Of a stretch of DNA of 23,392 nucleotides, positions 8,715 through 20,966 are shown one piece after another. A program made the translations under genes and the position numbers. The notes under the pieces are model-generated. The model had not been told where the DNA came from. It saw nothing but the letters and a program-made list of their open reading frames with translations, and made no database searches. The DNA is from an uncultured virus (IMG/VR IMGVR_UViG_3300031673_000002) (lineage: Duplodnaviria > Heunggongvirae > Uroviricota > Caudoviricetes), in the IMG/VR virus record IMGVR_UViG_3300031673_000002; one strand, 5' to 3'. Each line of letters begins with the position of its first letter. The stretch's first letter is position 1.

Positions 8715-8744
8715 TCGAGGTGACGAAGCATCACGCGCGGGGTG

Positions 8745-8820
8745 TGGCAGGGGCATCGAGAGTCGAACTCGAAGCCTTCGGTTTTGGAGACCGGTGCTCT
8801 ACCAGTTGAGCTATACCCCT
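8745..8820 (-). tRNA. trnW: tRNA-Trp(CCA)
   Basis: Loop CT-CCA-AA, G73, CCA. Confidence 0.93.
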
Positions 8821-8937
8821 TCAGCCGCGCGGATGCTTGCGTTGGCCGAAGGGGCGCCAATAATGCTGCATAAACATCACGGCACCCTGCTTCGCAGCGG
8901 GACAAGTCGTCTTGGTGATGTTGGTTGCAGTCTTCAT
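8821..8937 (-). CDS. putative leader peptide MKTATNITKTTCPAAKQGAVMFMQHYWRPFGQRKHPRG (may start at ATG 8877)
   Basis: Stop abuts tRNA-Trp 5' end; MFMQHYW matches the amino acids of the downstream tRNA block; SD weak. Confidence 0.6.
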   Translation of the reverse strand: MKTATNITKTTCPAAKQGAVMFMQHYWRPFGQRKHPRG

Positions 8938-8997
8938 GGCGTGCTTCTTCTGGGTTTTGGTCGGGCACCCAGTTGGTGGTGCTCACGACTCCTGACG

Positions 8998-9027
8998 ATA
9001 GTATGCGAAGTCAGATTCAGAACGCAA
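8998..9027 (-). promoter_or_regulatory. putative sigma70-like promoter for the Trp-to-Met tRNA block
   Basis: TTGCGT-N18-TACTAT. Confidence 0.4.
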
Positions 9028-9048
9028 CTGGAAAATGCAGATCCGGGA

Positions 9049-9324
9049 TCACTTTTTCTGGGATCGGCGCTTCTCCAGGAACGCCATCGTCTCTTTCATC
9101 GTGTAGTGCCACTTCATCTTGACGTGGGCCATACCCATGGCGATACCCCAGGCGTTACGGAACCTGTAGTCCAGGCTGAGCGGGTCACCGGGCAGCATCT
9201 TCTTCCCCAGCATACCGCGCCAGTACCCCACCGCGTGCCATGGGACCAAGAGCAGGTAGCGTCGTCGCCACAAGCGTACAGGCCAGCGCTGGTTCTGGAA
9301 GCGGTTGTCTATTGGCGGAGTCAT
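9049..9324 (-). CDS. hypothetical basic protein (91 aa)
   Basis: GAGGT SD; ATGA overlap with upstream gene; 3' part of ORF 9049..9570. Confidence 0.65.
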   Translation of the reverse strand: MTPPIDNRFQNQRWPVRLWRRRYLLLVPWHAVGYWRGMLGKKMLPGDPLSLDYRFRNAWGIAMGMAHVKMKWHYTMKETMAFLEKRRSQKK

Positions 9325-9515
9325 GACACGCTTACCTCGTCGATGACCGAGAAGTAGCCCCGCAACTGCCAGGACTCTCGACCCGTTTTGTCCCTCTTGA
9401 CGAGGAAGATGTCGGTGCCGTGTTCGGTGCGTTGGTTGATGATCCGGCCTGTCAAGATCCACCCAAGGTACCGATGCGGGATTCCGACACGTCGGCCTAC
9501 GAGGTGGTGCTTCAC
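9321..9515 (-). CDS. hypothetical protein (64 aa)
   Basis: TAGTG coupling upstream and ATGA coupling downstream; AAGGA SD. Confidence 0.6.
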   Translation of the reverse strand: MKHHLVGRRVGIPHRYLGWILTGRIINQRTEHGTDIFLVKRDKTGRESWQLRGYFSVIDEVSVS

Positions 9516-9760
9516 TAAAGACCGTAGTCCTTAGCGTTGCACTCACAGATGGTGGTCTGCGGATGACCACAGTCGGAGCACCCGCCTACTTCCTTGTGTG
9601 GATCGAGTCCGAAGCGGACACACAGCAGCGTTGCTGAGGTGGACCCCAGGCCAAACAAGGTCGCCACATGCGACCAGAGCGGAGCGCGGTCAGTAGACCT
9701 CTGTCCAGCGTTTGCGACAGCGAAGGAAAGAAGGCTCTCGTCGTCACGGGTGTCGGCCAT
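9515..9760 (-). CDS. small phage-type protein with C-terminal Cys cluster (81 aa)
   Basis: AAGGT SD before ATG 9760; LWSHVATLFGLGSTSATLLCVRFGLDP then CxxC/CxC. Confidence 0.7.
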   Translation of the reverse strand: MADTRDDESLLSFAVANAGQRSTDRAPLWSHVATLFGLGSTSATLLCVRFGLDPHKEVGGCSDCGHPQTTICECNAKDYGL

Positions 9761-9774
9761 GACTGACCTTAAAG

Positions 9775-9804
9775 GAAAAGGCCCTGGTTGCCCAGGGCCT
9801 TTTC
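9775..9804 (-). terminator. intrinsic terminator after HNH gene (possibly bidirectional)
   Basis: GAAAAGGCCCTGG-GCAA-CCAGGGCCTTTTC followed by CTTT. Confidence 0.8.
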
Positions 9805-10404
9805 TCAGTCTTCCAGCTCGGTGTTCCAGTACGCAGCCGAAGCCGGATCGACGAAGGGCATCCACTCCTTGTAGGGCACCCTGCCCTTGCGAGGCAAGAC
9901 ACCGCTCCACTTGGGACGCACGGGCTCACGCAGGAGCTTCATGCGCGCCTCGCGGGGAGTACGTCCACCCTTCTTCAGGTTGCAGTCGATGCAGGAACAC
10001 ACGATGTTCTCCCACCGCGTCCTACCACCCTGCGTCTTAGGCACCACATGGTCGAGGTTGAGCTTCGACCGCGCGAACTCCTTTGCGCAGTACTGACAAG
10101 TGAAATCGTCACGGGCGTAGATGTTCTGACGACTGAACCGGATCTTGTTCCGGGGGATCTTGTCGAAGGTCTGGAGCACGAGGACACGGGGGATCTTCAA
10201 CACCGACTTCACGGTGCTGATGACGTCGTCGCCGTGGTCTGCCGCGAGAGCCGACCAGGAATCATAGTCGAAGGTCTGGTACTGGTCGTCGAGGGCGCGA
10301 GCGGCTCCGGAGTACAGTAGACCGAATGCACGCTCCACCCCCGTGACTGCTACCGGCTGGTAGCCACGGTTGAGGACAAGTACCTGTGCGTTCACGTTGG
10401 TCAT
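9805..10404 (-). CDS. HNH endonuclease (199 aa; VLVLN...P-type)
   Basis: VLVLNRGYQP N-terminus; FSRQNIYARDDFTCQYC, LNLDHVVP-x3-GG-x3-WENIVCSCIDCNLKKGGRTP; AAGGAG SD before ATG 10404. Confidence 0.93.
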   Translation of the reverse strand: MTNVNAQVLVLNRGYQPVAVTGVERAFGLLYSGAARALDDQYQTFDYDSWSALAADHGDDVISTVKSVLKIPRVLVLQTFDKIPRNKIRFSRQNIYARDDFTCQYCAKEFARSKLNLDHVVPKTQGGRTRWENIVCSCIDCNLKKGGRTPREARMKLLREPVRPKWSGVLPRKGRVPYKEWMPFVDPASAAYWNTELED

Positions 10405-10466
10405 AGCTGTACCCCTCTCCTTCAGGGTGTGAGACGACGGGTGTCGCCGGTTACTGACAGATGCGG

Positions 10467-10543
10467 TGGCGCTCCCAACATGACTCGAACATGTGGCCTT
10501 CAATTTAGGAAATTGACGCTCTATCCACCTGAGCTATAGGAGC
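10467..10543 (-). tRNA. trnR: tRNA-Arg(CCU)
   Basis: Loop TT-CCT-AA, A20, CCA. Confidence 0.92.
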
Positions 10544-10557
10544 ATGATGCATGATGA

Positions 10558-10634
10558 TGGTGCGCTCGGAAGGGCTTGAACCTTCGACCCCCAGCTTAGA
10601 AGGCCGGTGCTCTATCCAACTGAGCTACGAGCGC
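10558..10634 (-). tRNA. trnR: tRNA-Arg(UCU)
   Basis: Loop CT-TCT-AA, A20, CCA. Confidence 0.93.
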
Positions 10635-10828
10635 ATACCCTGACCGACAACGGTCAGAGGTCTTCGCTCGAAGCTCCTGTGGGGACAGACGCCGGGAGAC
10701 GCACACGGGTAGAGGACTTCCTGCTCCCCGTCGCCGCAAGGCTCGAACCGAGCACCAACTGGACCGCCGTCCCGCGCCCGACACACATGAGGTGCTTCCC
10801 AGATGTCTACGTTTTTCAGGTCACTCAT
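10625..10828 (-). CDS. putative leader ORF (67 aa) with AGG/CGA/AGA codons, ending inside tRNA-Arg(UCU)
   Basis: AAAGGA SD; stop is the tRNA U8-A9-G10; AGG at 10676-10678, AGA at 10661-10663. Confidence 0.45.
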   Translation of the reverse strand: MSDLKNVDIWEAPHVCRARDGGPVGARFEPCGDGEQEVLYPCASPGVCPHRSFERRPLTVVGQGMRS

Positions 10829-10840
10829 CACGGTCCTTTG

Positions 10841-10917
10841 TGGCGCGCACGGCAGGACTTGAACCTGCGGCCTCAACCTTCGGAAAGTCGCGCTCTATCC
10901 AACTGAGCTACGCACGC
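10841..10917 (-). tRNA. trnR: tRNA-Arg(CCG)
   Basis: Loop TT-CCG-AA, A20, CCA. Confidence 0.92.
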
Positions 10918-10966
10918 ATCATCGCTCCTTTCGAGGGCAGGAGCAACACCCTTTCTTGTCTATCTT

Positions 10967-11042
10967 TGGAGCAGGCGATGGGATTTGAACCCACGACATC
11001 CGACTTGGAAGGACGGCGCTCTACCAACTGAGCTACACCTGC
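10967..11042 (-). tRNA. trnG: tRNA-Gly(UCC)
   Basis: Loop CT-TCC-AA, U73, CCA. Confidence 0.93.
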
Positions 11043-11043
11043 A

Positions 11044-11118
11044 TGGTGCGTCTGGCCGGATTTGAACCGACGCGCATTCGGTTATGAGCCGACCGCTCTA
11101 CCGCTGAGCTACAGACGC
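11044..11118 (-). tRNA. tRNA-Met(CAU), non-initiator (Met or Ile2 unresolved)
   Basis: Loop CT-CAT-AA, G1-C72, A73, CCA. Confidence 0.9.
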
Positions 11119-11132
11119 TCTGACTTAGGATA

Positions 11133-11208
11133 TGGTGCGTCCAGCAGGATTTGAACCTGCGACCTATACCATGTCAAGGTAGCGCTCTACCAACTGAGCT
11201 ATGGACGC
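11133..11208 (-). tRNA. trnV: tRNA-Val(GAC)
   Basis: Loop TT-GAC-AT, CCA. Confidence 0.93.
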
Positions 11209-11213
11209 AAAGA

Positions 11214-11281
11214 GCGAGCAAGATGATGCCAGTGTGGGGTGTGTCAACCATTTGATAACCCACGTTCGGCGTTCGGCTCGC
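11214..11281 (-). ncRNA. short Y RNA-like (68 nt), no tRNA module
   Basis: GCGAGC-C-GA / CUUGCUCGC bulged-C stem; GUGGGUUAUC...CCCCAC inner stem. Confidence 0.75.
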
Positions 11282-11289
11282 GAACAAGC

Positions 11290-11427
11290 TGAGAGCAAGG
11301 AGTGCGGCGAGGGAGATTTTAACGTTGCTCTACCAACTGAGCTACGCCCCCAAAAGTGGGGACGACGGGACTCGAACCCGCGACCAACGGCTTGGAATGC
11401 AGATAACCCTCAGTGCTTCGGCTCTCA
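11290..11427 (-). ncRNA. yrlA: YrlA-type Y RNA (Ro60 stem plus permuted tRNA-like domain)
   Basis: GAGAGC-C-GA / CUUGCUCUC stem; T arm GCGGG-UUCGAGU-CCCGU, then closed acceptor-like stem, then D arm GCUC-AGUUGGUA-GAGC; no anticodon loop. Confidence 0.9.
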
Positions 11428-11447
11428 AACCTTTCAGAATCAAAGTG

Positions 11448-11524
11448 TGGTGCGTCCGGCAGGGGTCGAACCTGCGGCCTCTGGTTTCGTAGACCAGCGC
11501 TCTGTCCAACTGAGCTACGGGCGC
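11448..11524 (-). tRNA. trnR: tRNA-Arg(ACG)
   Basis: Loop CT-ACG-AA, A20, CCA. Confidence 0.93.
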
Positions 11525-11536
11525 ATGAAGAAAAGC

Positions 11537-11669
11537 GACGAGCAAGTAGGTGACCTGGATGTTTTACGCGCTCTACCGATTGAGCTATCCGGCATCTGGT
11601 TGCCGGAGAGGGACTCGAACCCCCAACCACGCGAGTATGATTCGATAATCCAGTATCTGTCGGCTCGTC
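11537..11669 (-). ncRNA. yrlA: YrlA-type Y RNA
   Basis: GACGAGC-C-GA / CUUGCUCGUC; T arm GGGGG-UUCGAGU-CCCUC, closed stem UCCGGCA/UGCCGGA, D arm GCUC-AAUCGGUA-GAGC. Confidence 0.9.
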
Positions 11670-11678
11670 AAAGAAATA

Positions 11679-11810
11679 GTGAGCAAGTAGTCGCGAAGGG
11701 GACGCTAAACTGGTGCGCTGCCGGACTGCGCCACACGGCATTACTGCCATGGCAGGATTTGAACCTGCGACCCCCAGTGACCTTTGGGTAACCCTAAGCT
11801 GTCGGCTCAC
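11679..11810 (-). ncRNA. yrlA: YrlA-type Y RNA
   Basis: GUGAGC-C-GA / CUUGCUCAC; T arm GCAGG-UUCAAAU-CCUGC, closed stem CAUGGCA/UGCCGUG, D arm GCGC-AGUCCGGCA-GCGC. Confidence 0.9.
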
Positions 11811-11836
11811 AAACCTCTGTGAAATCGTTAGAAGGT

Positions 11837-11873
11837 TAGGTGACGGGCTCCGACGAGCGAAGCCCGTCACCTA
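11837..11873 (-). other. 13-bp stem-loop after rsr stop (mRNA end protection or processing site; no U tract)
   Basis: TAGGTGACGGGCT (11837-11849) / AGCCCGTCACCTA (11861-11873). Confidence 0.6.
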
Positions 11874-11882
11874 TTCAGTCGG

Positions 11883-13595
11883 TCAGCCTCGCGCGAACGA
11901 GGCCATGACCTGGGGCGTGTCGGCAGAGAAGCCGACAACATCGAGCATCCCTGCATCGCTGGGATCAGCGATGCTGAATCCCGTCGAGGTCATGCCCATG
12001 ACGATGAGCTTCGCTGCCCGTCCCATCGTCTGCCGGTACTGGCGGAGTGCCTGCACCGGGTGAATGTTTCCTGCCCAGGTCTCGTTGTCGGTGATCACCA
12101 CGAAGGTGTCCACTTCCAGCTTCTTCTCGGTTGCGTACGTCATCGGAAGAGCGCAGTCGGTTCCGCCGAAGGGCAGACCGGACACCGAGCGGACAGCGTC
12201 CGTCAGTGACATGCGGTCGTGGAGCTTCAACTCGCTGACCCCTGCTCCAAAGCGCGGACCCCACTGTGAGCGGCCCGGGCCTCCCGTGAATCCGATGACG
12301 TGGTGTGCCGGCTCGACGTTCATGGTCACGAGGGCCATGGCAGCCGATGCTTCACGGGCAGACAAGGGCGAACCCAGGATCTGTGCTCCCATGGAGCCCG
12401 ACACGTCGAGTGCGAGCAGCCAGTTCTGGTTCGTGGGCTCGACTGCCTTGAACGCCAGGTAGAACGCCTTGTCCAGTGCGGACACAATGTTCCTGTCAGC
12501 CGTCCAGACCAGCTTGCCCTTGTGACCGTGACCCTGCTCATAGGTTCGGAGCGCCATCAAGATAGCCATCGGGTGGACCCGTGCCCTCGCCAACTCGTTC
12601 GCGTCGCACAGGCGTGCGGTCACGAACTTGGAAGCATCCGACAGGGGCTTGGTGAGCCCGATGCTCGACATCTTGCCGAGGTTCCGAATCATGGCCGTCA
12701 CGGGCATGCCCTTGCCAGCCATGAGCAGCGCCTCCCAGACCGCGAGGTCGTTGAGGTGCTCCGTCTTCACGCACTCACGGGGCAGACCGTACTCGACGAT
12801 CAGCTTGGCCGTGTCGCGCGCTGAGGTCGCCTCTCGTGCCTTCTCCACGCCCTCGACCAGCCGGGGCAGGTCGCGCTTGTAGAGCCGCTTGTAGGTCCCC
12901 TCAGACAGCACGGTGCCGTCCTTCGTCGTCCGGGTCACCTTGCGCTGAGCGAGCTTGCCGTCAGCGATGAGGTACCGGAACAAGGTCTCGTGACCCTTGG
13001 TCGCGGGCGCCGTGCCCTTCTTCGCACCCATGTGAGACTTGGCGAGCAAGTCCTTGTGGGTCCAGCCCTCGCGGGACTGGTACTTGAAGAGGTCGAGCGC
13101 CAGACGGTCGGGCGACTTCGCGTTGTAGTACGACGCCACGGCCTTCGCCGTGATGCGACCCCAGCCGCCGAGAGCCTGGCAGGCTTCCGCGAACTGGAAG
13201 ATGTGCGTACCGATACGGCAGACCTTGGGCACGGCGTCCTTAGCAGCCCGACGGGTGTCGAGGTCGCCCTGCTTCATGGCCAACGCCAACGCGAAGATGG
13301 CCGGGTCGTTCTTGGGCGCGAGGCCCTGCTCCGACACCTCGACGATGCGAGCCACGGCACGAGCACCATCGGCCTTGATGCAGCGGATCACGCACTCGGC
13401 GTTCTCGATGGTCAGCTTGCGCTCGGAAGCGTAGTACGTACCCGCCTCGGCACCGAGGATCAGGAAGCGGTCGAACCGCGTCCAGTCGTCAACGGCGAAC
13501 ACGAAACCACCAGCGTTGTTCTTGACCTGCGTCGAGCCGGGGATCTTCTCCCGCTGCGAGGTCTTCTTCGTGTTGAAGTGCTGTGCGTACGTCAT
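11883..13595 (-). CDS. rsr: Ro60 / TROVE-domain RNA-binding protein (Rsr)
   Basis: QVKNNAGGFVF, RFLILGAEAGTYY, KYQSREGWTHKDLL, AMIRNLGKMS, RVHP, vWA MIDAS DVSGSM, GGTDCALPM, TDNETW; AGAGGAG SD. Confidence 0.97.
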   Translation of the reverse strand: MTYAQHFNTKKTSQREKIPGSTQVKNNAGGFVFAVDDWTRFDRFLILGAEAGTYYASERKLTIENAECVIRCIKADGARAVARIVEVSEQGLAPKNDPAIFALALAMKQGDLDTRRAAKDAVPKVCRIGTHIFQFAEACQALGGWGRITAKAVASYYNAKSPDRLALDLFKYQSREGWTHKDLLAKSHMGAKKGTAPATKGHETLFRYLIADGKLAQRKVTRTTKDGTVLSEGTYKRLYKRDLPRLVEGVEKAREATSARDTAKLIVEYGLPRECVKTEHLNDLAVWEALLMAGKGMPVTAMIRNLGKMSSIGLTKPLSDASKFVTARLCDANELARARVHPMAILMALRTYEQGHGHKGKLVWTADRNIVSALDKAFYLAFKAVEPTNQNWLLALDVSGSMGAQILGSPLSAREASAAMALVTMNVEPAHHVIGFTGGPGRSQWGPRFGAGVSELKLHDRMSLTDAVRSVSGLPFGGTDCALPMTYATEKKLEVDTFVVITDNETWAGNIHPVQALRQYRQTMGRAAKLIVMGMTSTGFSIADPSDAGMLDVVGFSADTPQVMASFARG

Positions 13596-13643
13596 GGCAT
13601 TCTCCTCTGTAGGGCAATCATGGCCCTGTTTGTTAGAAAAGGC

Positions 13644-13707
13644 GAGAGCAAGTGAGGTGCTTCAGGGGGAAATCTTTACCTGGATAACCCTGGTGCGTTC
13701 GGCTCTC
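13644..13707 (-). ncRNA. short Y RNA-like (64 nt) immediately 5' of rsr
   Basis: GAGAGC-C-GA / CUUGCUCUC; CAGGGUUAUC...CCCUG inner stem. Confidence 0.78.
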
Positions 13708-13710
13708 AAA

Positions 13711-13806
13711 TGGTTGCGGGAGGAGGAATCGAACCTCCGTCGCTCGGGTTATGAGCCCAAGTTCAGTGCCCTAGCTTTCGATAGGGCTTCCAGCACCGTC
13801 CCCGCG
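13711..13806 (-). tRNA. initiator tRNA-fMet(CAU) with about 20-nt hairpin inserted in the D loop
   Basis: C1:A72 mismatch, GGG/CCC anticodon stem, loop CT-CAT-AA, normal T arm, CCA; 96 nt. Confidence 0.85.
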
Positions 13807-13807
13807 A

Positions 13808-13881
13808 TGGCTCAGGCAGAGGGATTTGAACCCCCGTCCCCGGGTTAACGGCCCGGTGCTACGCCTCTCAGCTATGCCTGA
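13808..13881 (-). tRNA. trnN: tRNA-Asn(GUU) with C33
   Basis: Loop CC-GTT-AA, U1-A72, G73, CCA. Confidence 0.9.
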
Positions 13882-13924
13882 TCAGTGCCTACTACGTCCT
13901 GATAGGTCTTCGAACTCCTGTGCA

Positions 13925-14001
13925 TGGTGCTCCCAGGGGGATTTGAACCCCCGTTGCCGCCGTGAGAGGGCGGTGTCCTTGGCCAGCTAGACGATAGGAG
14001 C
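13925..14001 (-). tRNA. trnE: tRNA-Glu(CUC)
   Basis: Loop CT-CTC-AC, CCA. Confidence 0.93.
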
Positions 14002-14004
14002 GTA

Positions 14005-14080
14005 TGGTGCTCTCGACGGGATTTGAACCCGTGTTGCCCGAGTGAAAACCGGGTCTCCTAGGCCACTAGAGGACGAGAGC
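14005..14080 (-). tRNA. trnE: tRNA-Glu(UUC)
   Basis: Loop TT-TTC-AC, CCA. Confidence 0.93.
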
Positions 14081-14126
14081 ATGTGCGTGGATTTCGCGTG
14101 CGTTCTTCTGCTTCTTCAGGTTCCAT
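14058..14126 (-). CDS. putative Glu-rich leader peptide MEPEEAEERTRNPRTCSRPLVA
   Basis: Strong AAGGAGG SD; five GAA in the first eight codons; runs into tRNA-Glu(UUC). Confidence 0.65.
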   Translation of the reverse strand: MEPEEAEERTRNPRTCSRPLVA

Positions 14127-14178
14127 CTCGTCCTCCTTCCTTTCCTTGTTGTTAAGGTAAAAGTTTTTACCTTAGCTG

Positions 14179-14254
14179 TGGTACCTGAAGCCGGGCTCGA
14201 ACCGACGACCTGCGGTATGTGACACCGCCGCTCTTCCAACTGAGCTATTCAGGC
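14179..14254 (-). tRNA. trnV: tRNA-Val(CAC)
   Basis: Loop GT-CAC-AT (G32), CCA. Confidence 0.9.
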
Positions 14255-14291
14255 AAGTGCTGCCTCGGACCTGTCCCCGAGGCGTGGACTG

Positions 14292-14366
14292 TGGAGCGGA
14301 TGAAGGGATTTGAACCCTCGACCTTCACGTTGGCAACGTAGTGCTCTACCACTGAGCTACATCCGC
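14292..14366 (-). tRNA. trnG: tRNA-Gly(GCC)
   Basis: Loop TT-GCC-AA, U73, CCA. Confidence 0.93.
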
Positions 14367-14371
14367 ATTTG

Positions 14372-14447
14372 TGGTCCGCCGGGGAAGGATCGAACTTCCG
14401 CATACGCCCTTATCAGGAGCGCCTCTTAACCACTTGAGTACCGGCGG
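14372..14447 (-). tRNA. trnI: tRNA-Ile(GAU)
   Basis: Loop CT-GAT-AA, A73, CCA. Confidence 0.9.
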
Positions 14448-14473
14448 TCGCCGGTAATGTCGCTGTCTTCCAT
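14426..14473 (-). CDS. putative leader peptide MEDSDITGDRRYSSG
   Basis: GAAGGTGA SD; stop in D loop of tRNA-Ile; ATT codon at base of a hairpin pairing with the tRNA 5' strand. Confidence 0.45.
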   Translation of the reverse strand: MEDSDITGDRRYSSG

Positions 14474-14498
14474 GTCGATCACCTTCTCTCTTTCCTGC

Positions 14499-14574
14499 TG
14501 GAGCCCGGAGCGGGAGTTGAACCCACGGCCTCCTGATTACGAAACAAGCGCTCTGCCGACTGAGCTATCCGGGC
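14499..14574 (-). tRNA. trnT: tRNA-Thr(CGU)
   Basis: Loop TT-CGT-AA, CCA. Confidence 0.9.
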
Positions 14575-14578
14575 GCAC

Positions 14579-14654
14579 TGGAGCCGCCAGCGGGGGTTGA
14601 ACCCGCGACCTCGTCCTTACCAAGGACGCACTCTTCCAACTGAGCTATGGCGGC
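14579..14654 (-). tRNA. trnT: tRNA-Thr(GGU)
   Basis: Loop TT-GGT-AA, CCA. Confidence 0.93.
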
Positions 14655-14660
14655 GTAGGG

Positions 14661-14737
14661 TGGTGGGTCGGGCGGGGCTCGAACCCGCGACCGATCGATT
14701 AAAAGTCGAATGCTGCTACCGCCTGAGCTACCGACCC
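14661..14737 (-). tRNA. trnK: tRNA-Lys(UUU)
   Basis: Loop CT-TTT-AA, CCA. Confidence 0.92.
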
Positions 14738-14784
14738 ACAGTCGTGGCGGTCTTGCGTTTGAGGCGGATCTCCGTGGTGCTCAT
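14728..14784 (-). CDS. putative Lys/Thr-rich leader peptide MSTTEIRLKRKTATTVGR
   Basis: Strong AGGAAGGAG SD; 5 Thr and 2 Lys in 18 codons; stop is U8-A9-G10 of tRNA-Lys(UUU). Confidence 0.62.
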   Translation of the reverse strand: MSTTEIRLKRKTATTVGR

Positions 14785-14802
14785 GATGTTCTCCTTCCTT
14801 TG

Positions 14803-14880
14803 TGGTCCGTCGAGGGGGAATCGAACCCCCATTCAGTCTGAGTAAGAGTCAGGTGCAAAGCCAGTTTTTGCTATCGACGG
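14803..14880 (-). tRNA. trnK: tRNA-Lys(CUU)
   Basis: Loop CT-CTT-AC, D stem GCAA/TTGC, CCA. Confidence 0.87.
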
Positions 14881-14927
14881 TCGTCATGTTGTGGACTGTC
14901 CAAGGTCGTCCCTACCTTCTGCTTCCG

Positions 14928-15004
14928 TGGTCCGAGAGGCAGGATTTGAACCTGCGGCCCCTGCACCCCCAGCGCAGTGCTCTGCCAAGCTGAGCTACTC
15001 TCGG
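14928..15004 (-). tRNA. trnP: tRNA-Pro(GGG)
   Basis: Loop CT-GGG-GG, C1-G72, A73, CCA. Confidence 0.92.
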
Positions 15005-15007
15005 TCG

Positions 15008-15083
15008 TGGTGGAGATGACAGGCTATGATCCTGCGACCTTCTCGATGCCATCGAGACGCTCTCCCAACTGAGCTACATCCCC
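15008..15083 (-). tRNA. trnA: tRNA-Ala(GGC), atypical T loop
   Basis: Loop AT-GGC-AT, G3.U70, A73, CCA; T loop ATCATAG. Confidence 0.88.
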
Positions 15084-15137
15084 GTATTGTCGCCCGTCTC
15101 TCCGAGCAGCCACGCCAGACAAAGACGGCGTTCCCTT

Positions 15138-15214
15138 TGGTGGAGTCGGGGACAGATCGAAGTCCCTACTTCGCCTTGCAAGGGCGGCGTTTTCGCCACG
15201 TAAACTACGACCCC
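15138..15214 (-). tRNA. trnA: tRNA-Ala(UGC), atypical T arm
   Basis: Loop CT-TGC-AA, G3.U70, CCA; T arm GGGAC-TTCGATCT-GTCCC. Confidence 0.86.
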
Positions 15215-15323
15215 AAAATGACCCTACTTCTTGCCTGGTGTGGGGAGGGTCACACCCACTTCCTGTTTTCCAGGGCTTCCACCTGGGAGCCCAATGCTTT
15301 CCTCCTTTTTGGGTAGGTGGTGA

Positions 15324-15402
15324 TGGCGGCACGTACGGGATTTGAACCCGTGATCTCCTCCGTGACAGGGAGGCGTCCTAAACCGAACTAGACCAACGCA
15401 CC
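15324..15402 (-). tRNA. trnD: tRNA-Asp(GUC)
   Basis: Loop CT-GTC-AC, G73, CCA. Confidence 0.93.
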
Positions 15403-15409
15403 AAATGAA

Positions 15410-15480
15410 CCTTCCCAGAACGTTTGAACCCCCTCGACCGTCTGACGGCCAAGGGGGTTCAAGTGAACCTGGGCGTCAGA
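15410..15480 (-). promoter_or_regulatory. attenuator-like RNA switch between tRNA-Pro(CGG) and tRNA-Asp
   Basis: 18-bp hairpin 15424-15462 mutually exclusive with pairing 15474-15480/15441-15447 plus 15464-15469/15456-15461; no clear U tract. Confidence 0.5.
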
Positions 15481-15488
15481 AAAGATGG

Positions 15489-15725
15489 TCAGCCAGTACC
15501 GGCTTCAACGCGACGATCATTCGCATTGATCGCGGTCGTCCCGAAAATCGAGGTGCGCTTGGCGCAGATGAAGCTCTCTGCTGATTTTTGGTCTCGGTGG
15601 AGGGAATCGAACCCCCGTTTTCTTGCTCCCGAAGCAAGCGGCCTACCTGACTGGCCCACACCGAGGCACGGGGAAGCAGAGAGCTTCACTGGCGACGGCT
15701 TTGTAGGTGGGGTCATGGTGAACAT
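15489..15725 (-). CDS. putative 78-aa leader ORF reading through tRNA-Pro(CGG)
   Basis: ORF track; GAGG SD; five Pro before the tRNA-Pro; stop lies 8 nt before the switch at 15480. Confidence 0.4.
   Translation of the reverse strand: MFTMTPPTKPSPVKLSASPCLGVGQSGRPLASGARKRGFDSLHRDQKSAESFICAKRTSIFGTTAINANDRRVEAGTG
15589..15665 (-). tRNA. trnP: tRNA-Pro(CGG)
   Basis: Loop TT-CGG-GA, C1-G72, A73, CCA. Confidence 0.9.
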
Positions 15726-15763
15726 CGAAATCGAGCCTCGGTGCGCAAGGTGCGCGTTGGTCT

Positions 15764-15797
15764 TCTATAGGTAGTGCAAAGCAGACGGGGAAGTCAA
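15764..15797 (-). promoter_or_regulatory. putative promoter of the main tRNA-rsr-Y RNA operon
   Basis: TTGACT at 15792-15797 with A-rich upstream tract; -10 region CTACCTATAGA is imperfect. Confidence 0.4.
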
Positions 15798-15882
15798 CCG
15801 GCTTCTTCGCAATTTCTTGATCTTTTTTTCATCGCCATAAGATCCGGGCACTTACGTGGATCCAATGTCATGGATCAGCGTA

Positions 15883-16134
15883 TCATACGGGCAGCCCTCT
15901 TCGTTCGATCTCAGCCCGTATCAGGCCGGGCGTGATTAAGTGCTTGATGCCGCCAGGGGCGTTGACGACGAAAGGGTGCCGCTTCTTGTGGGCCTTCGCC
16001 TGGAGCTTACGGAGCTTCTTCTCTGTCTTGCTTTGGAGGAAGGTAACGGTGTCATCAGCCGATGCTACTTTCTTGCCCCTGCCGACAGCAACCTGCTCGT
16101 GTATGGGCCGCGCACTGCTTGGCTCGGTAGTCAT
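15883..16134 (-). CDS. hypothetical basic protein (83 aa)
   Basis: ORF track; GGTGA SD; follows AAA ATPase gene. Confidence 0.6.
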   Translation of the reverse strand: MTTEPSSARPIHEQVAVGRGKKVASADDTVTFLQSKTEKKLRKLQAKAHKKRHPFVVNAPGGIKHLITPGLIRAEIERRGLPV

Positions 16135-16196
16135 CGTTTCACCACGGGGAGATACTCATACCGGTCCTCCGCAGATCACGAACACACGCTACGCCA

Positions 16197-18479
16197 TCAA
16201 TCCATAACGGCAGGAGCGCGCACCTCGTCCGGGATGGGGAATTCCATGCTCTTCTTCGCGTCAGGGCGCTTCGATGAGGTCTTCTTCTGTCCCGTGCTGT
16301 TCAGGTTGGCCGTGAGCTTGTGCGCCGACTCGTAGGTCTGAACCGCCGTCTGGATCTCCTGACGGATGGCGAGGTTGCCGACGAGGTGATCCACCGCGTT
16401 GGACAAGTCCAGTGAGGTCACGGTTGCATGCGGTGCAAGGCGCTTCTTGAGCTTGGCCTTGTCCTCCGCTGTGAACTCCGTGAGATCGAATCGTCCTGTC
16501 TCCTCCGTCAAGCTCGTGACGACTTCCTCGGCGACCTTGGGGTGCATGCGCACGAACGTACCGAGCTTGTCTCGCCAGATGTGGTCACCAACCTTACGGA
16601 TGATGTCACCCACGGCGCCTTCGAGCTTCTGTGCCGCTTCTTCCCAGGCATCGTGCTTGATGTTGGTAGGAAGGTAGCCCTCGACAAACTGCTTGAGCAG
16701 CTTCACCCGATCTGCCTGCGTCAGCTCGCCGACGATGACCACCTTGTTGAATCGGCGGAGCATCGCGTGCGGGATGCGCTGCGGGAAGTTGGTCGCTCCC
16801 CACACCGACAAGTTCGGGTACTGGACGACGCCATCCATGAGGATCTGGAATTCCAGCGTCAGGTTCGTGCTGCTGAAGTCGCGGTCGTCATTGAGAACGG
16901 AGTCGATCTCATCGATGAGGAAGTGAACGCGACGCTTCGCTTCCTTGCTGAGACGAAGACCCGCCTCGAACAGACGCTTGGGGTTCTTCTCAGCCTCTCC
17001 CTTCCAGCAGGTAAGGAAGTCCGAACCCTGAGCGAACACGCCGATCGAATCCTTGTCGCCACCCACGGCGCGGAGAATCTCCGACTTACCCGATCCCGGA
17101 GGACCCACAAGCAACACGTTGGCCTTGTCCGCTGTCTTGCTCGGCGAGGTCGCCAAGAACAGATTGTGGAACTTGTTGGTCTCCTCGATGGACTGGATGA
17201 AATCCTTGACCTCATCGAAGCCGCTGCCCCTGATCTCGTCGAGGGTTGCGAGGGGGCGCTGTCCCGGAGTGACCTTGAGGGCGCCGGGTGCCTCGCCACC
17301 GAAGGGGTTGCCCGCACTGATCGAGCACACGTAGAACGAGTTCTCCTCGTGGAAGAACTTGCGCAGCTCTGCTTTGCGGTTGAGGACGTAGTTGACGAGG
17401 TCATCGACACTCACCATGTTGTCGACAAGGTGGTCCACAATGGCTTCGAGGGTCTCGTTCTGAAACGCAAGAGCGAAGCGCTCCTCGCGCGTCATCATCC
17501 GTTCCTTGTCACGGCTCACTACGTCGGCTGGGTTGAGATCCTCGATCGCTTGCAGGGCGACGTCGATCGACCCCACATCCTGCCTACGAGCTAGCTGCCC
17601 GTCCAGGTACGACATCGCCATCCGGGTGGCGTCCGAGAAGCCTGCCTGCAAAGACTTCACTGAGGAACGCATCATGCCGAGGTAGACGGTCGTGAACTTG
17701 ATGAGCGTGTCTGGGGCGTAGAGGAGCGATGCCGCGTTCGAGTTCTTGACGAAGGACGCAACCAGCTTCGCCTTGCTCAGCGAGTAGGCGGAAAGCTCAT
17801 CAGGATTCTTGCCGTCCTGAATCTCACCATCGGCGTCGATGTTGCTGTACACAGCCATCGCGATGTCGGTGATGATCGGGTCGCGGTGGATTTGCAACCC
17901 TTCCACCGTGTGCCGATGGATCAGCTTCTTGTGGTAGCTCTCCAGGCTGTGCTGAATGTCCTCTGCCATCTTGGTCAAGTAGATGTCGGCGTCCCTCAAC
18001 GAGATGAGCGCCCCGATGTTGCGGGAGAGCGTGGGCGCGTTGAGCTGCATCTCGAAGTGGAGGTTCTGGACGTCCTTGCCGTCGCGCATCGAGTCGTAAC
18101 GGCTCTTGGAGAGCACGAAGTCACCCGGGGTGAGGTCGTTCATCAGGGACAGCATCTCATCGTACAGGCGCTGGAGGGACGACGTGATGACGTAGCCCAC
18201 GTCGATGAAGGTGTCCGTGGTGACAGCTTCCTCAAACGGATCGACTGCTTCCATCATGCCGGCGGGTCGGTTCCTGCGTAGCGAGTTCCTCTTGTTCTCG
18301 CCAACCATCGCCCTCCGTGCCTGACGGAAGACGGAAGAGAACTCCTCAAGCTCCTGCACTTGGTCAGCGAGGTGTCTCTTGAACTCCTCCATAGGAGCAC
18401 TTCTACCCCTCATGCTCTCGACGACCTTGACCAGGCCATAGAAGCGGTTGGGATTGTAGAAGTCGATCTTGGTGCTCAT
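16197..18479 (-). CDS. AAA+ ATPase (classic AAA clade) with long N-terminal region
   Basis: Walker A GPPGSGKS, pore loop WKGEAEK, Walker B FLIDEID, SRH GATNFPQRIPHAMLRRF. Confidence 0.92.
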   Translation of the reverse strand: MSTKIDFYNPNRFYGLVKVVESMRGRSAPMEEFKRHLADQVQELEEFSSVFRQARRAMVGENKRNSLRRNRPAGMMEAVDPFEEAVTTDTFIDVGYVITSSLQRLYDEMLSLMNDLTPGDFVLSKSRYDSMRDGKDVQNLHFEMQLNAPTLSRNIGALISLRDADIYLTKMAEDIQHSLESYHKKLIHRHTVEGLQIHRDPIITDIAMAVYSNIDADGEIQDGKNPDELSAYSLSKAKLVASFVKNSNAASLLYAPDTLIKFTTVYLGMMRSSVKSLQAGFSDATRMAMSYLDGQLARRQDVGSIDVALQAIEDLNPADVVSRDKERMMTREERFALAFQNETLEAIVDHLVDNMVSVDDLVNYVLNRKAELRKFFHEENSFYVCSISAGNPFGGEAPGALKVTPGQRPLATLDEIRGSGFDEVKDFIQSIEETNKFHNLFLATSPSKTADKANVLLVGPPGSGKSEILRAVGGDKDSIGVFAQGSDFLTCWKGEAEKNPKRLFEAGLRLSKEAKRRVHFLIDEIDSVLNDDRDFSSTNLTLEFQILMDGVVQYPNLSVWGATNFPQRIPHAMLRRFNKVVIVGELTQADRVKLLKQFVEGYLPTNIKHDAWEEAAQKLEGAVGDIIRKVGDHIWRDKLGTFVRMHPKVAEEVVTSLTEETGRFDLTEFTAEDKAKLKKRLAPHATVTSLDLSNAVDHLVGNLAIRQEIQTAVQTYESAHKLTANLNSTGQKKTSSKRPDAKKSMEFPIPDEVRAPAVMD

Positions 18480-18739
18480 GTCTTATCCCGGTAGGTGGTA
18501 TAGGACCGATGGTAGGCGCACCTTCCTCGCCTACCTGCGGTGGTCGTCCGCTCCGGCTCCTGCCCGCCGTGGGCTCGCGGTTTGGTGTTTGGTTACAGGC
18601 ATCAATCACCGCGAGGAGACAGCCCAAGGAAACGCTACCTCGTCGTGAGGTTGTTGTCAGCCCTCTTCTGTTGGCGTCGGGCGCCGCCATGAGCTTCTGC
18701 CGAATGCGTTTCACTTCGACATCCTTCCAGATAGGCGAC

Positions 18740-18856
18740 TCAATCTACCCAGCCGTCACCACGAAGGAGGTGCCACGTGCGGTGCTTGAGTACCTCAAGC
18801 ACCAAACGAAAGAGAGACGGGGCCTCGTACACGCCTGCGGTGGTGATTAGCTTCAC
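18740..18856 (-). CDS. small hypothetical protein MKLITTAGVYEAPSLFRLVLEVLKHRTWHLLRGDGWVD (38 aa)
   Basis: GAGGGA SD and TAGTG coupling with methyltransferase stop; 3' part of ORF 18740..18940. Confidence 0.55.
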   Translation of the reverse strand: MKLITTAGVYEAPSLFRLVLEVLKHRTWHLLRGDGWVD

Positions 18857-19467
18857 TATTCGTCCCTCACTCTCTGCATGCGATGGGCAACAGGCTCGGC
18901 GTGCGCCAGCACGGGAGCTTCCAGTCCCCACGCTGCCCAACCCGGCGCCGACTCGCGGGCGAACAACTCAATCCGAGGCCGGTCGCCAAAGAGGCGGACG
19001 ATGTGGTCACGGACGATAGCCGGCTTCTTGCTATGCTTGCCTGGCCTCTGGTGGGGCACGACCTGTGGTACCGCAGCGTCGAGCAGAGGGAACGGGCGGC
19101 CCCTCTTCTGCGGCGTCGCCAGGAGACAAAGCTCCGATGTCGGCTTCGTCCCCGTCGGCGGAACACCCTGCCCGTGGATGAGACCGCCGTCCCGCCGCGT
19201 CTTCACCCAGTTGAAGGCAACACCTCGGTAGCACAGGCCCCAAGCAGCTATGGCCTGGAAGGCAAGATCGAGTCTCGGGCACGTTGCCCAGACGAAGAAG
19301 GCTCCGCGCTTCGGGTCACGTAGAAGGCCCTTCATGTCCAGTGCGCAGATCGACTCCATCGACATGAGGTCGTAGTGCTTGCCTGCCGCAGCGTCCTTGT
19401 TCGGGTCGCCGTACATTGGCCATGCAGGGTCAGCATAGATGATGTCGTAGTGCGGACCCCAGGTCAC
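18856..19467 (-). CDS. MT-A70 family adenine methyltransferase
   Basis: YDIIYADPAW (DPPW-like), HYDLMS, FFVWAT, AWG-x2-Y-x5-WVK, HSKKP, RIELFARE-x2-PGW-x2-WG; likely GTG start 19467 (ORF track start 19494). Confidence 0.92.
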   Translation of the reverse strand: MTWGPHYDIIYADPAWPMYGDPNKDAAAGKHYDLMSMESICALDMKGLLRDPKRGAFFVWATCPRLDLAFQAIAAWGLCYRGVAFNWVKTRRDGGLIHGQGVPPTGTKPTSELCLLATPQKRGRPFPLLDAAVPQVVPHQRPGKHSKKPAIVRDHIVRLFGDRPRIELFARESAPGWAAWGLEAPVLAHAEPVAHRMQRVRDE

Positions 19468-19601
19468 GTCGTCACCGCTCCGATCAGAAGGCACGTCGAG
19501 AGGACAAAGCGCACTCTAATGGGCGGGACAGCAACGCACAGTAAAAAAATCCCAAGTACCAAAAACAACCAAGAAGCAAAGAGAAGATTCCGATGACCCA
19601 A
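19464..19601 (-). CDS. possible small membrane peptide (45 aa)
   Basis: TTG start with GAGG upstream, hydrophobic LLFASWLFLVLGIFLLCVAV, GTGA overlap with methyltransferase start. Confidence 0.3.
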   Translation of the reverse strand: MGHRNLLFASWLFLVLGIFLLCVAVPPIRVRFVLSTCLLIGAVTT

Positions 19602-19841
19602 GTATTCCGCCTCGCTGATCTGAAGAGACGCTGCAAGCGCTGCCACAGGATCGACTGCGAGGACCACTGCGTACAATGTGGGAAAGACCACGATCACGAC
19701 GACAACGATTCCGATGTCTGTCTCTCGTGTGAAGCAAAGAACGACCCAATCGTAGTCGACGACGACAACGACCTGTGGCAGCCACCGGTCTACCCCGCCG
19801 ACGTGCTCTACGTAGTCAAGCACTACCGCAAGCAACGGTGA
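19593..19841 (+). CDS. small Cys-rich putative zinc-binding protein (82 aa)
   Basis: CxxC-x4-C-x3-CxxC...CxxC pattern, GC3-rich codons, ends just before the 19856 hairpin. Confidence 0.6.
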   Translation: MTQVFRLADLKRRCKRCHRIDCEDHCVQCGKDHDHDDNDSDVCLSCEAKNDPIVVDDDNDLWQPPVYPADVLYVVKHYRKQR

Positions 19842-19851
19842 CCAACAGCGC

Positions 19852-19892
19852 AAAACGGGATGCGTAGCTGGATGAGCCAGCTACGCATCCCG
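19852..19892 (-). terminator. terminator of the Leu/Ser tRNA block
   Basis: 16-bp perfect stem 19856-19871/19877-19892 followed by TTTT on minus strand. Confidence 0.78.
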
Positions 19893-19900
19893 GATCGCTA

Positions 19901-19988
19901 TGGCGGAGGGTGAGGGATTTGAACCCCCGGTGCCGCGAAGCACAACCGATTTCAAGTCGGTCGCAATCAGCCTCTCTGCCAACCCTCC
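19901..19988 (-). tRNA. trnS: tRNA-Ser(UGA)
   Basis: Loop CT-TGA-AA, long variable arm, G73, CCA. Confidence 0.93.
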
Positions 19989-20011
19989 ATAAATGGCGGC
20001 TACGGTGAGAA

Positions 20012-20098
20012 TGGAGGAAAGCAGCGGGATCGAACCGCACACCCGAAGGTGCCACTTGATTAGCAATCAAGGCCAGGACCAGACCTGGGTTACTTTCC
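20012..20098 (-). tRNA. trnS: tRNA-Ser(GCU), atypical D arm
   Basis: Loop TT-GCT-AA, long variable arm, A8, extended D stem CCAGG/CCTGG, CCA. Confidence 0.85.
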
Positions 20099-20102
20099 AT
20101 AG

Positions 20103-20197
20103 TGGCGGAAGGAGAGGGGGTCGAACCCTCACGACCCCTTTCGAGGTCAGTCCGATTTCGAGTCGGGTGCCGGCGCCATCTATCGGCTGGTCCTTCC
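20103..20197 (-). tRNA. trnS: tRNA-Ser(CGA)
   Basis: Loop CT-CGA-AA, long variable arm, G73, CCA. Confidence 0.88.
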
Positions 20198-20201
20198 AAA
20201 A

Positions 20202-20296
20202 TGGCGGATGGAGCGAGGGTCGAACTCGCACGACCCCTTTCGAGGTCAGCCCGATTTCCAATCGGGTGCCGGCGCCAACTATCGGCTGGCCCATCC
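20202..20296 (-). tRNA. trnS: tRNA-Ser(GGA)
   Basis: Loop TT-GGA-AA, long variable arm, G73, CCA. Confidence 0.88.
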
Positions 20297-20329
20297 AGAG
20301 AGAGAGAGCAAGTACCTTCTGCTCTTTCA

Positions 20330-20416
20330 TGGTACTCAAAACAGGACTTGAACCTGCACGCCCTTTCGGGCACAACCACCTCAAGGTTGCGTGTCTACCA
20401 GTTCCACCATTTGAGC
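20330..20416 (-). tRNA. trnL: tRNA-Leu(GAG)
   Basis: Loop TT-GAG-GT, long variable arm, A73, CCA. Confidence 0.92.
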
Positions 20417-20433
20417 AAACCTAAAACTATACT

Positions 20434-20520
20434 TGGTGTAAGCGGGGGGACTTGAACCCCCAGGTGGGTTTCCCCTTCGGAACTTAAACCCGCTGCGTCT
20501 GCCAATTCCGCCACGCTCAC
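20434..20520 (-). tRNA. trnL: tRNA-Leu(UAA)
   Basis: Loop TT-TAA-GT, long variable arm, A73, CCA. Confidence 0.88.
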
Positions 20521-20525
20521 ATAGT

Positions 20526-20611
20526 TGGTACCCCGAGGGGGACTTGAACCCCCACGCCCTTTCGAGCACTGCCTTCTGAGGGCAGCATGTCTGCAATTCC
20601 ATCACCGGGGC
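20526..20611 (-). tRNA. trnL: tRNA-Leu(CAG)
   Basis: Loop CT-CAG-AA, long variable arm, A73, CCA. Confidence 0.9.
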
Positions 20612-20614
20612 ACA

Positions 20615-20699
20615 TGGTACCGAGAGGGGGACTTGAACCCCCACGTCAAAAGACACCGGGGTTTGAAGCCAGCGCGTCTGCCAATTCCGCCATCTCGGC
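20615..20699 (-). tRNA. trnL: tRNA-Leu(CAA)
   Basis: Loop TT-CAA-AC, long variable arm, A73, CCA. Confidence 0.9.
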
Positions 20700-20800
20700 A
20701 CAGGTGGTGGTACGTATTCAGTTGTGGTCACGATGGCTGGTCGTTTTCGGGAGCCTTGGTCCTCATCTTCAATTCGCGAATTGCGATCGTCCCTTCCCAG

Positions 20801-20840
20801 AAAGAGAAAAACCCCCTCGCGGTCTCACCGGAGGGGGTTT
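20801..20840 (-). terminator. attenuator terminator upstream of Leu/Ser tRNA block
   Basis: AAACCCCCUC-CGGU-GAG-ACCG-C-GAGGGGGUUU followed by UUCUCUUU. Confidence 0.85.
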
Positions 20841-20866
20841 GTGTCGTCTTGGCCTGAGATCAGTTC

Positions 20867-20938
20867 CTAGACACACCCCTCCGTCGTCGAGCTAAGGCTC
20901 GACAGCAGCAGGAGGGATGACAAGGAGCGGAAGTTCAT
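20867..20938 (-). CDS. Ser/Leu leader peptide MNFRSLSSLLLLSSLSSTTEGCV
   Basis: 13 consecutive Ser/Leu codons; stop at the end of the antiterminator 5' strand; SD weak. Confidence 0.78.
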   Translation of the reverse strand: MNFRSLSSLLLLSSLSSTTEGCV

Positions 20939-20966
20939 CGGTATGGGGCCTGGCAAAAGAGATAGA

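Follow-up and report, generated by a model that had tools for sequence, protein, structure and literature searches.

On balance, we favour the interpretation that a ribosome-mediated transcription attenuator controls an operon of transfer RNA (tRNA) genes at positions 21064-19852, on the minus strand, of the uncultured-virus record IMGVR_UViG_3300031673_000002 (Caudoviricetes), and that related codon-matched sensors act on a second tRNA block and on two sub-blocks of a third one. The whole stretch of DNA analysed, 23,392 nucleotides (nt) long, is called the window below, and its tRNA blocks are designated A to D. In the attenuator segment, unit A, a short open reading frame (ORF) with a long tract of Leu and Ser codons precedes an intrinsic terminator, which is followed by eight tRNA genes specifying Leu and Ser. 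The phage would probably make the matched tRNAs only when ribosomes lack them. The elements of unit A are the following:

21064-21035, minus strand: putative promoter-like sequence TTGACG-N18-TACACA, found by eye
20967-21026, minus strand: Y-RNA-like stem unit (GAGAGCCG...GGGTTATC...CTTGCTCTC) without a tRNA-like domain, found by eye, just 5' of leader A
20938-20867, minus strand: leader ORF A, MNFRSLSSLLLLSSLSSTTEGCV followed by a stop codon, with an ATG start and 23 sense codons
20926-20888, minus strand: 13 consecutive Leu/Ser codons, eight different codons being used
20877-20916, minus strand: segment 1:2 hairpin of the minimum-free-energy fold, with the Leu/Ser regulatory codons as its 5' arm
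20829-20883, minus strand: predicted antiterminator, segment 2:3, -27.6 kcal/mol in the nascent RNA (constrained folds)
20838-20800, minus strand: intrinsic terminator, segment 3:4, a hairpin of about -23 kcal/mol with the U-run UUUUUCUCUUUC
20699-19901, minus strand: block A, tRNA genes for Leu (CAA, CAG, UAA, GAG) and Ser (GGA, CGA, GCU, UGA)
19892-19852, minus strand: hairpin of 16 base pairs (bp) plus TTTT closing the unit, found by eye

The promoter-like element is of the same type as the TTGCGT-N18-TACTAT sequence found at 9027, upstream of block D. The tRNA content of the unit is exclusively Leu and Ser, and its downstream end is closed by the second hairpin with its T-run. The description of block A as four Leu plus four Ser genes, put forward in a preliminary description of this DNA, holds: the three genes for which ARAGORN gave no call, with GGA, CGA and GCU anticodon loops (20296-20206, 20197-20107 and 20098-20011), fold as Ser-like cloverleaves with a long variable arm, and two of the three also give sub-threshold tRNA-Sec matches.

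Leu and Ser make up 13/22 codons of leader A, compared to 3.1 expected. Searching, for each block, the longest codon run made only of that block's amino acids in all six frames of the window, we found that the longest Leu/Ser run in the whole 23.4 kilobases (kb) is the one of 13 codons lying directly before block A, the next longest being of 8. A run of this length was obtained in none of 5000 dinucleotide-shuffled versions of the 300 nt preceding the block, in none of 10000 local shuffles of the 72-nt ORF and in none of 10000 shuffles of the run plus 9 nt on each side.

The leader A region folds more stably than its shuffled versions (z score -3.2), into the 1:2 hairpin, a small central hairpin and the terminator. 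Segment 2 corresponds to the last eight codons of leader A, and segment 3 to the 5' arm of the terminator. We then considered folds of the nascent RNA, constrained by the presence of a ribosome and restricted to transcripts in which the 3' arm of the terminator has yet to be made. Under these conditions the 2:3 antiterminator is predicted to form with the ribosomal A site at codons 9-13, to be weaker at codons 15-17 and to be gone when the ribosome is at the stop codon. Since the frame, the codon run, the pause hairpin, the antiterminator, the terminator and the position of the stop codon all fit the classical model, unit A is supported in silico, and it is most likely an attenuator of the trp/leu/ilv type controlling eight tRNA genes.

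In the model that we infer from the sequences, the statistics and the predicted structures, leader A would be translated, the ribosome would stall on it according to tRNA supply, and tRNA output would change as a result. Specifically, when Leu- and Ser-tRNAs are plentiful, the ribosome would reach the stop codon, with which segment 2 ends, and cover this segment; the 3:4 terminator would then form, and transcription would end about 100 nt before the first tRNA gene. When Leu or Ser codons are decoded slowly, the ribosome would wait on segment 1 and leave segment 2 to pair with segment 3; with the antiterminator formed, RNA polymerase would continue into the tRNA genes, four for Leu and four for Ser. 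The outcome would be a negative feedback on the decoding capacity for those very codons.

This layout can be compared with the leader-peptide attenuators of the enterobacterial amino-acid operons leu, ilvGMEDA, thr, his, trp and pheA. Like unit A, these combine a short leader frame, whose regulatory codons cluster in segment 1, with a 1:2 pause hairpin, alternative 2:3 and 3:4 pairings and a U-run, and in the ilv and thr systems more than one amino acid is sensed together, as would be the case here. They differ in having a Shine-Dalgarno sequence, expected in such leaders and unseen at A, and in the genes under control: enterobacterial attenuators govern biosynthesis, transport or synthetase genes, unit A eight tRNA genes. 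Because the regulated genes are tRNAs, the loop would close on decoding capacity and not on amino-acid supply. The novelty of unit A lies in this class of controlled genes. Synthetase expression is set by tRNA status also through the pheST (pheM) attenuator and through T-box leaders, which, as proposed here, tune part of the translation apparatus to the status of one tRNA species; pheM, however, controls a synthetase and not tRNA genes, and the T-box binds the uncharged tRNA directly, with no ribosome involved. None of the Rfam leader families (Leu, His, Thr, Trp) and no T-box was matched at gathering score, nor at E<=5 over positions 7500-21400. A full-text literature search, whose coverage excluded older subscription papers on phage tRNA regions, returned no account of leader-peptide control of tRNA genes.

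A second codon-matched leader lies before block D. Its elements are the following:

9027-8998, minus strand: putative promoter-like TTGCGT-N18-TACTAT
8937-8821, minus strand: leader ORF D, 38 codons, with its stop codon abutting tRNA-Trp
From 8877, minus strand: short form of leader D, MFMQHYWRPFGQRKHPRG followed by a stop codon, 18 codons, starting at the ATG of MFMQHYW
8877-8857, minus strand: MFMQHYW run (ATG TTT ATG CAG CAT TAT TGG)
8855-8815, minus strand: 12-bp hairpin, -27.8 kcal/mol, whose 3' arm includes the stop codon together with the first 6 nt of tRNA-Trp
8820-7756, minus strand: block D, tRNA genes for Trp, Gln, Tyr, His, Gln, Cys, Phe and Met

The longest run of codons for Trp, Gln, Tyr, His, Cys, Phe and Met in the six frames of the window is of seven and is located directly before block D; the next longest is of five. 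It was equalled in 8/5000 regional dinucleotide shuffles of the 300 nt upstream and in 0.07-0.24% of 20000 local shuffles. The long form of the leader adds codons for Cys (TGT), Gln (CAA), Phe and His, with which every isotype of block D is represented. The Phe, His and Tyr codons of the leader are the minor ones, TTT, CAT and TAT, which seven long ORFs of the window use at 7%, 13% and 11%, respectively; minor codons are likewise a feature of the leu leader.

The output of unit D would differ from that of unit A, the sensor being of the same kind. The hairpin (-27.8 kcal/mol, compared to -24.7 for tRNA-Trp alone; z score of the region -4.5) is predicted to lock the 5' acceptor strand of tRNA-Trp. 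In folds masked by a ribosome, all 7/7 acceptor-stem pairs of tRNA-Trp form solely with the ribosome at the Tyr or the Trp codon, and 0/7 form when the ribosome is absent, occupies any of codons 1-5 or has reached the stop codon; a ribosome held at Tyr or Trp would thus free this strand. This suggests that control in unit D acts on tRNA folding or processing rather than on termination. The nearest parallel is the translational attenuation of erm and cat genes, in which a ribosome stalled on the leader opens a downstream hairpin. In unit D, and possibly at the mini-ORFs described below, a ribosome held on the leader would similarly melt a hairpin sequestering the start of the downstream element; in erm and cat, however, the sequestered element is a ribosome-binding site and the stall is caused by a drug, while the element here would be the 5' acceptor strand of a tRNA and the proposed stall a shortage of tRNA.

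To find further candidates inside the arrays, we selected frames of at least five codons that start outside a tRNA and have a Shine-Dalgarno core of at least five bases, which yielded five mini-ORFs in spacers. These are given below together with the two remaining blocks and a Pro-rich frame:

15665-13808, minus strand: block B, tRNA genes for Pro, Asp, Ala, Ala, Pro, Lys, Lys, Thr, Thr, Ile, Gly, Val, Glu, Glu and Asn
11524-10467, minus strand: block C, tRNA genes for Arg, Val, Met, Gly, Arg, Arg and Arg
14784-14728, minus strand: Shine-Dalgarno-led mini-ORF MSTTEIRLKRKTATTVGR and stop codon, ending in tRNA-Lys(UUU), the genes that follow being Lys, Thr, Thr
14126-14058, minus strand: Shine-Dalgarno-led mini-ORF MEPEEAEERTRNPRTCSRPLVA and stop codon, ending in tRNA-Glu(UUC), the genes that follow being Glu, Glu, Asn
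14473-14426, minus strand: Shine-Dalgarno-led mini-ORF MEDSDITGDRRYSSG and stop codon, preceding Ile, Gly, Val
15294-15250, minus strand: Shine-Dalgarno-led frame before Ala, Ala, Pro, absent from the list of the preliminary description
10828-10625, minus strand: Shine-Dalgarno-led 67-codon ORF before Arg(UCU) and Arg(CCU), with no Pfam match
15725-15666, minus strand: start of a Pro-rich frame, with 5 Pro in the first 19 codons after the start

Two of these mini-ORFs are matched, with moderate enrichment, to the tRNAs that follow. The Lys/Thr mini-ORF has 7/17 cognate codons (1.9 expected), a value reached in 59/20000 local shuffles, and the Glu/Asn mini-ORF has 6/21 (1.9 expected; 460/20000 local shuffles). 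Both belong to block B and end inside the next tRNA, and they may act as proposed for unit D. In the Glu/Asn mini-ORF, the region of the Shine-Dalgarno sequence and start codon pairs with the 5' strand of tRNA-Glu (z score -2.2); in the 67-codon ORF, the AGG...CGA AGA region pairs with the 5' strand of tRNA-Arg(UCU) (z score -2.9). Two other frames with suggestive composition were discarded for having no ATG, GTG or TTG start: an Asp-rich one (DFRDDRD) before tRNA-Asp and a His-rich one (6/41) in a 51-nt tandem repeat before tRNA-His. The repeat itself (8421-8525, between tRNA-Tyr and tRNA-His) is perfect, with 2.1 copies and 100% matches. In block C, a four-codon frame, ATG ATG CGT GCG TAG (10921-10907, minus strand), is preceded by AAGGAG and ends inside tRNA-Arg(CCG).

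When leaders and tRNA sets were cross-tabulated, the A, D, Lys/Thr and Glu/Asn leaders each scored highest against their own tRNA set. An automated test of ORFs against tRNA sets gave 0.004 for block A and 0.001 for block D in the window, the score of D being equalled or beaten by 1/1000 random amino-acid sets. Extended to 15 blocks in four sequences, the test reached 0.05 or less in 6/15 blocks (Fisher p 4e-5); under a stricter definition of a block this was the case for 5/24 (p 0.002). All together, sensing of decoding by a codon-matched leader is well supported in silico for block A and has statistical support for block D and for the two mini-ORFs.

Candidate leaders of the same design recur in unrelated sequence, namely in a distant relative and in cultured mycobacteriophages. 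A viral contig of 388 kb encodes an AAA+ protein 41% identical to that of the window; its Lys, Lys, Gln, Leu, Val, Ala array is headed by TTGACT...TATATG and by the frame MLLTPHKQTTQATLVTVQACAKRVQQVKG with its stop codon, 23/28 codons of which are cognate (0.039 in the automated test). A 53-residue ORF with a promoter and a strong terminator is present at a second array of this contig. In addition, two leaders were found in McWolfish, a Mycobacterium phage of the genus Bixzunavirus (MK112548.1):

About 37578-37613: MRTSSQQNRQQ and stop codon, with TACAGT-N7-ATG, before Gln and Asn (0.011 in the automated test)
3404-3463: MFEIRPPEPRWRYQPSLGR and stop codon, with TTGCGC-N17-TACCGT-N7-ATG, before Pro, Trp and Tyr (0.019 in the automated test)

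The seven bases between the -10 box and the ATG in these leaders match the spacing found in leaderless mycobacterial mRNAs. The Gln/Asn leader pairs with the 5' strand of tRNA-Gln (z score -3.8, 0/200 shuffles). In Phabba (Myrnavirus, 77% identity), the -10 box, start, stop and frame of this leader are kept, giving MRTNRLNRQQ and a stop codon; the two versions differ by a 3-nt indel that leaves the frame intact.

A number of observations weigh against the proposed control. Neither leader A nor the long form of leader D is preceded by a Shine-Dalgarno core of at least five bases, unlike the genes and mini-ORFs of the window, which have strong sites, and the short form of D has just GGTG five bases upstream of its ATG. 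The Leu/Ser run of leader A covers 7/8 of the block A anticodons; as codon usage predicts the same (P 0.15), this coverage shows no excess and was discarded as evidence. In the full-length equilibrium fold of unit A the terminator is favoured at every ribosome position, and therefore the switch would have to be kinetic; the nascent fold without a ribosome likewise forms the 2:3 antiterminator. In unit D, stalls at the Met, Phe, Gln and His codons leave the hairpin closed in silico, the hairpin has no U-tract and hence there is no terminator of the kind present in A, and the hairpin could directly affect just the first of eight tRNAs.

To the same side belong the frames and blocks in which no match was found. 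The Ile/Gly/Val frame (3/14 cognate codons, 2.8 expected) and the frame before Ala, Ala, Pro (2/13) are at chance level; the 67-codon ORF is unenriched in Arg (7/66 compared to 4.6 expected; AGG and AGA occur once each); and the Pro-rich frame is still open at tRNA-Pro(CGG) and passes through the tRNA for 78 codons. No matched leader emerged from the automated test at the head of either block B (0.93) or block C (0.20), and it speaks against a general design that just 6/15 blocks, or 5/24 under the stricter definition, reach 0.05. Outside the window, the 53-residue ORF of the 388-kb contig is unenriched overall (32/53 cognate codons, 29.5 expected); two further relatives, which have numerous HNH genes and whose tRNAs are scattered, showed by eye no leader-like frames at 3 loci with 56 tRNA groups; and no orthologous leader was found in the phage records, viral contigs or metagenome contigs scanned. 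Specifically, megablast against 50,697 phage records gave no close relative and two trivial matches of about 55 nt, searching viral contigs with the Ro-like protein and with the AAA+ protein, each by itself, gave no close relatives, and the MFMQHYW coding pattern occurred in no viral contig. Its seven matches in metagenome contigs were attributed to chance, 0/7 being near a tRNA.

These data allow the claims of the preliminary description to be refined. The seven short minus-strand frames that it listed can all be read as written there. Its contention that each frame carries codons for the tRNAs that follow is borne out by shuffling for A, D, Lys/Thr and Glu/Asn, and is not supported for Ile/Gly and Arg, which do not exceed chance, and for Pro, whose frame runs through the tRNA; the idea that each block is gated in this way was overstated, given the unmatched heads of B and C. 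It had further placed at every leader a hairpin that is either a terminator or a pairing with the 5' strand of the first tRNA. A terminator is indeed present at A, and 5'-strand pairing at D, Glu/Asn and Arg; pairing as a general rule was rejected, as only 3/23 spacers beat shuffles at p<=0.03. The core of its proposal, that codon-matched leaders sense decoding of the codons read by the tRNAs that follow, finds in silico support at A and statistical support at D and the two mini-ORFs, and is not sustained for the other three leaders or for every block; stalling would then release the missing tRNAs.

Could coincidence and ordinary RNA signals account for these patterns? In that case the frames would be untranslated, the hairpins would act as simple terminators, as processing sites or as pieces of the adjacent Y-like RNAs, and pyrimidine-rich or AT-rich hairpin arms would give rise to the codon runs. 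The lack of Shine-Dalgarno sequences at A and D would be accounted for, as would the three claimed leaders at chance level. The D run lies in a patch of 33% GC, and a second Leu/Ser run, of seven codons, occurs in the same frame just upstream of leader A, in the CT-rich 3' strand of the Y-like unit, so composition can yield such tracts. Local shuffles that keep composition, however, never reach 13 (0/10000 for the ORF and for the run with its flanks) and seldom reach seven; both runs are window maxima, on the right strand and directly before the sole blocks with those isotypes; and the pattern is repeated in the unrelated sequence of other phages. We regard coincidence as unlikely. In a separate alternative, the terminator at 20838-20800 would just end a short Y-like RNA transcript, the Leu/Ser tRNAs having a promoter of their own in the next 100 nt. 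A Y-like unit does lie directly upstream in the same orientation, and such units are repeated through the arrays. On the other hand, the spacer of about 100 nt (20800-20700) shows no TTGAC-type -35 box by eye and no minus-strand promoter in a generic sigma-70 scan, and both the 13-codon run and the alternative 2:3 pairing would be left unexplained; we regard this alternative as very unlikely.

Alternatively, the frames may be translated for a role independent of their codons: to shield the tRNA transcript from Rho or nucleases, to make the first tRNA accessible to processing, or to make small peptides. The codon match would then reflect co-adaptation or a feed-forward "test" of the phage tRNAs, not negative feedback. 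The strong Shine-Dalgarno sites on five mini-ORFs ending inside tRNAs, only two of them matched, would agree with such a role, and any translating ribosome would open the sequestering hairpin in unit D and in the mycobacteriophage leader. In unit A the stop codon closes segment 2, and this four-segment layout predicts instead termination when translation is fast, the opposite of shielding, and the minor codons in leader D fit a sensor. We consider a codon-independent role quite unlikely, and attenuation by codon-matched leaders remains the interpretation that we prefer.

The Y-like units of the window would belong to a known kind of element and stand outside the attenuator claim. Ro60/Rsr proteins occur with YrlA-type Y RNAs, bacterial and phage Y RNAs carrying tRNA-like domains. 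The window contains a Ro60-like gene and the following units:

11883-13595, minus strand: Ro60-like RNA-binding protein with TROVE and vWA domains, a neighbouring gene outside the attenuators
11322-11389, 11564-11632 and 11711-11776, minus strand: YrlA-like units with a tRNA-like domain, RF02553 scores of 44, 40 and 36 bits, respectively
13706-13647, 21026-20967, about 8195-8105 and about 11290-11220, minus strand: further units with the stem motifs and without a tRNA-like domain

The three RF02553 matches cover YrlA positions 23-87 and are all below the gathering score of 69. Their tRNA-like domain has the 3' half before the 5' half, and an interpretation as permuted tRNA genes in block C was rejected in favour of candidate YrlA-like Y RNAs beside the Ro60 gene. 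By eye, the seven units share the stem GAGCCGA...GGGTTAYC...CTTGCTC, with co-varying flanking bases. They cluster around the Ro60-like gene, one being directly 5' of this gene and one, with motifs common to the YrlA-like units near it, directly 5' of leader A. The Ro60-like protein is 44-47% identical to annotated actinophage Ro-like proteins.

The window has a GC content of about 59% and 35 tRNA genes called by ARAGORN, on the minus strand throughout; 34 tRNAs were found by Rfam at gathering score. A further tRNA-like sequence (13709-13803, minus strand) ends in CCA and has a T arm and an anticodon loop with CAU; its D region is expanded and irregular, and it has no ARAGORN or Rfam call. The sequence CTGGGAAGG occurs twice on the minus strand 3' of a CCCCCT/AGGGGG hairpin, after the unit A terminator (20800) and directly before tRNA-Asp (15418); at the latter copy the T-run is weak, and no matched leader frame there opens with a start codon. 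The genes between the blocks encode a helicase with a LAGLIDADG intein, an AAA+ ATPase, an MT-A70 methyltransferase, an HNH endonuclease and the Ro60-like protein:

4252-7008, minus strand: helicase (ResIII and Helicase_C) split by a LAGLIDADG-type intein

Inteins are present, according to Pfam, also in several AAA+ ATPase homologues of relatives. The DNA runs containing the window sequence are soil metagenomes. Of four DNA runs whose contigs were compared with the window, two, one of them a possible source of this DNA, have long identical contigs and two have single near-identical contigs of 151 nt; one 151-nt contig from an aquatic run is about 84% like positions 8843-8948 (leader D), and nothing was concluded from it. 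An identical AAA+ protein is found on a 147-kb contig. Since the closest homologue of this protein is only 55% identical and its relatives lie on viral contigs of 63 to 448 kb, the window evidently derives from a large uncultured phage without a close sequenced relative.

In conclusion, a broader picture can tentatively be drawn, in which large phages would place tRNA operons under codon-matched leaders that sense decoding in real time, through two output modules, a terminator/antiterminator switch and the sequestration of the 5' strand of the first tRNA. Such a design, recurring in unrelated lineages including cultured mycobacteriophages, may provide a homeostatic refill of tRNAs depleted by tRNA-cleaving host defences or by infection itself. 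Since the Mycobacterium phages with analogous leaders grow on M. smegmatis mc2 155, the idea would be directly testable, and leaders of this kind would offer compact codon-specific sensors for synthetic biology. Transfer RNA genes are usually viewed as constitutive or controlled by growth rate, and phage tRNAs as passive cargo serving codon usage or anti-defence. If the proposal is true, this would be the first case of tRNA supply set by direct ribosome feedback on cognate codons; it would explain why tRNA genes are sorted by isotype into separate units in large phages, and it would provide a mechanistic link between phage tRNA arrays and the tRNA-targeting immunity of their hosts.

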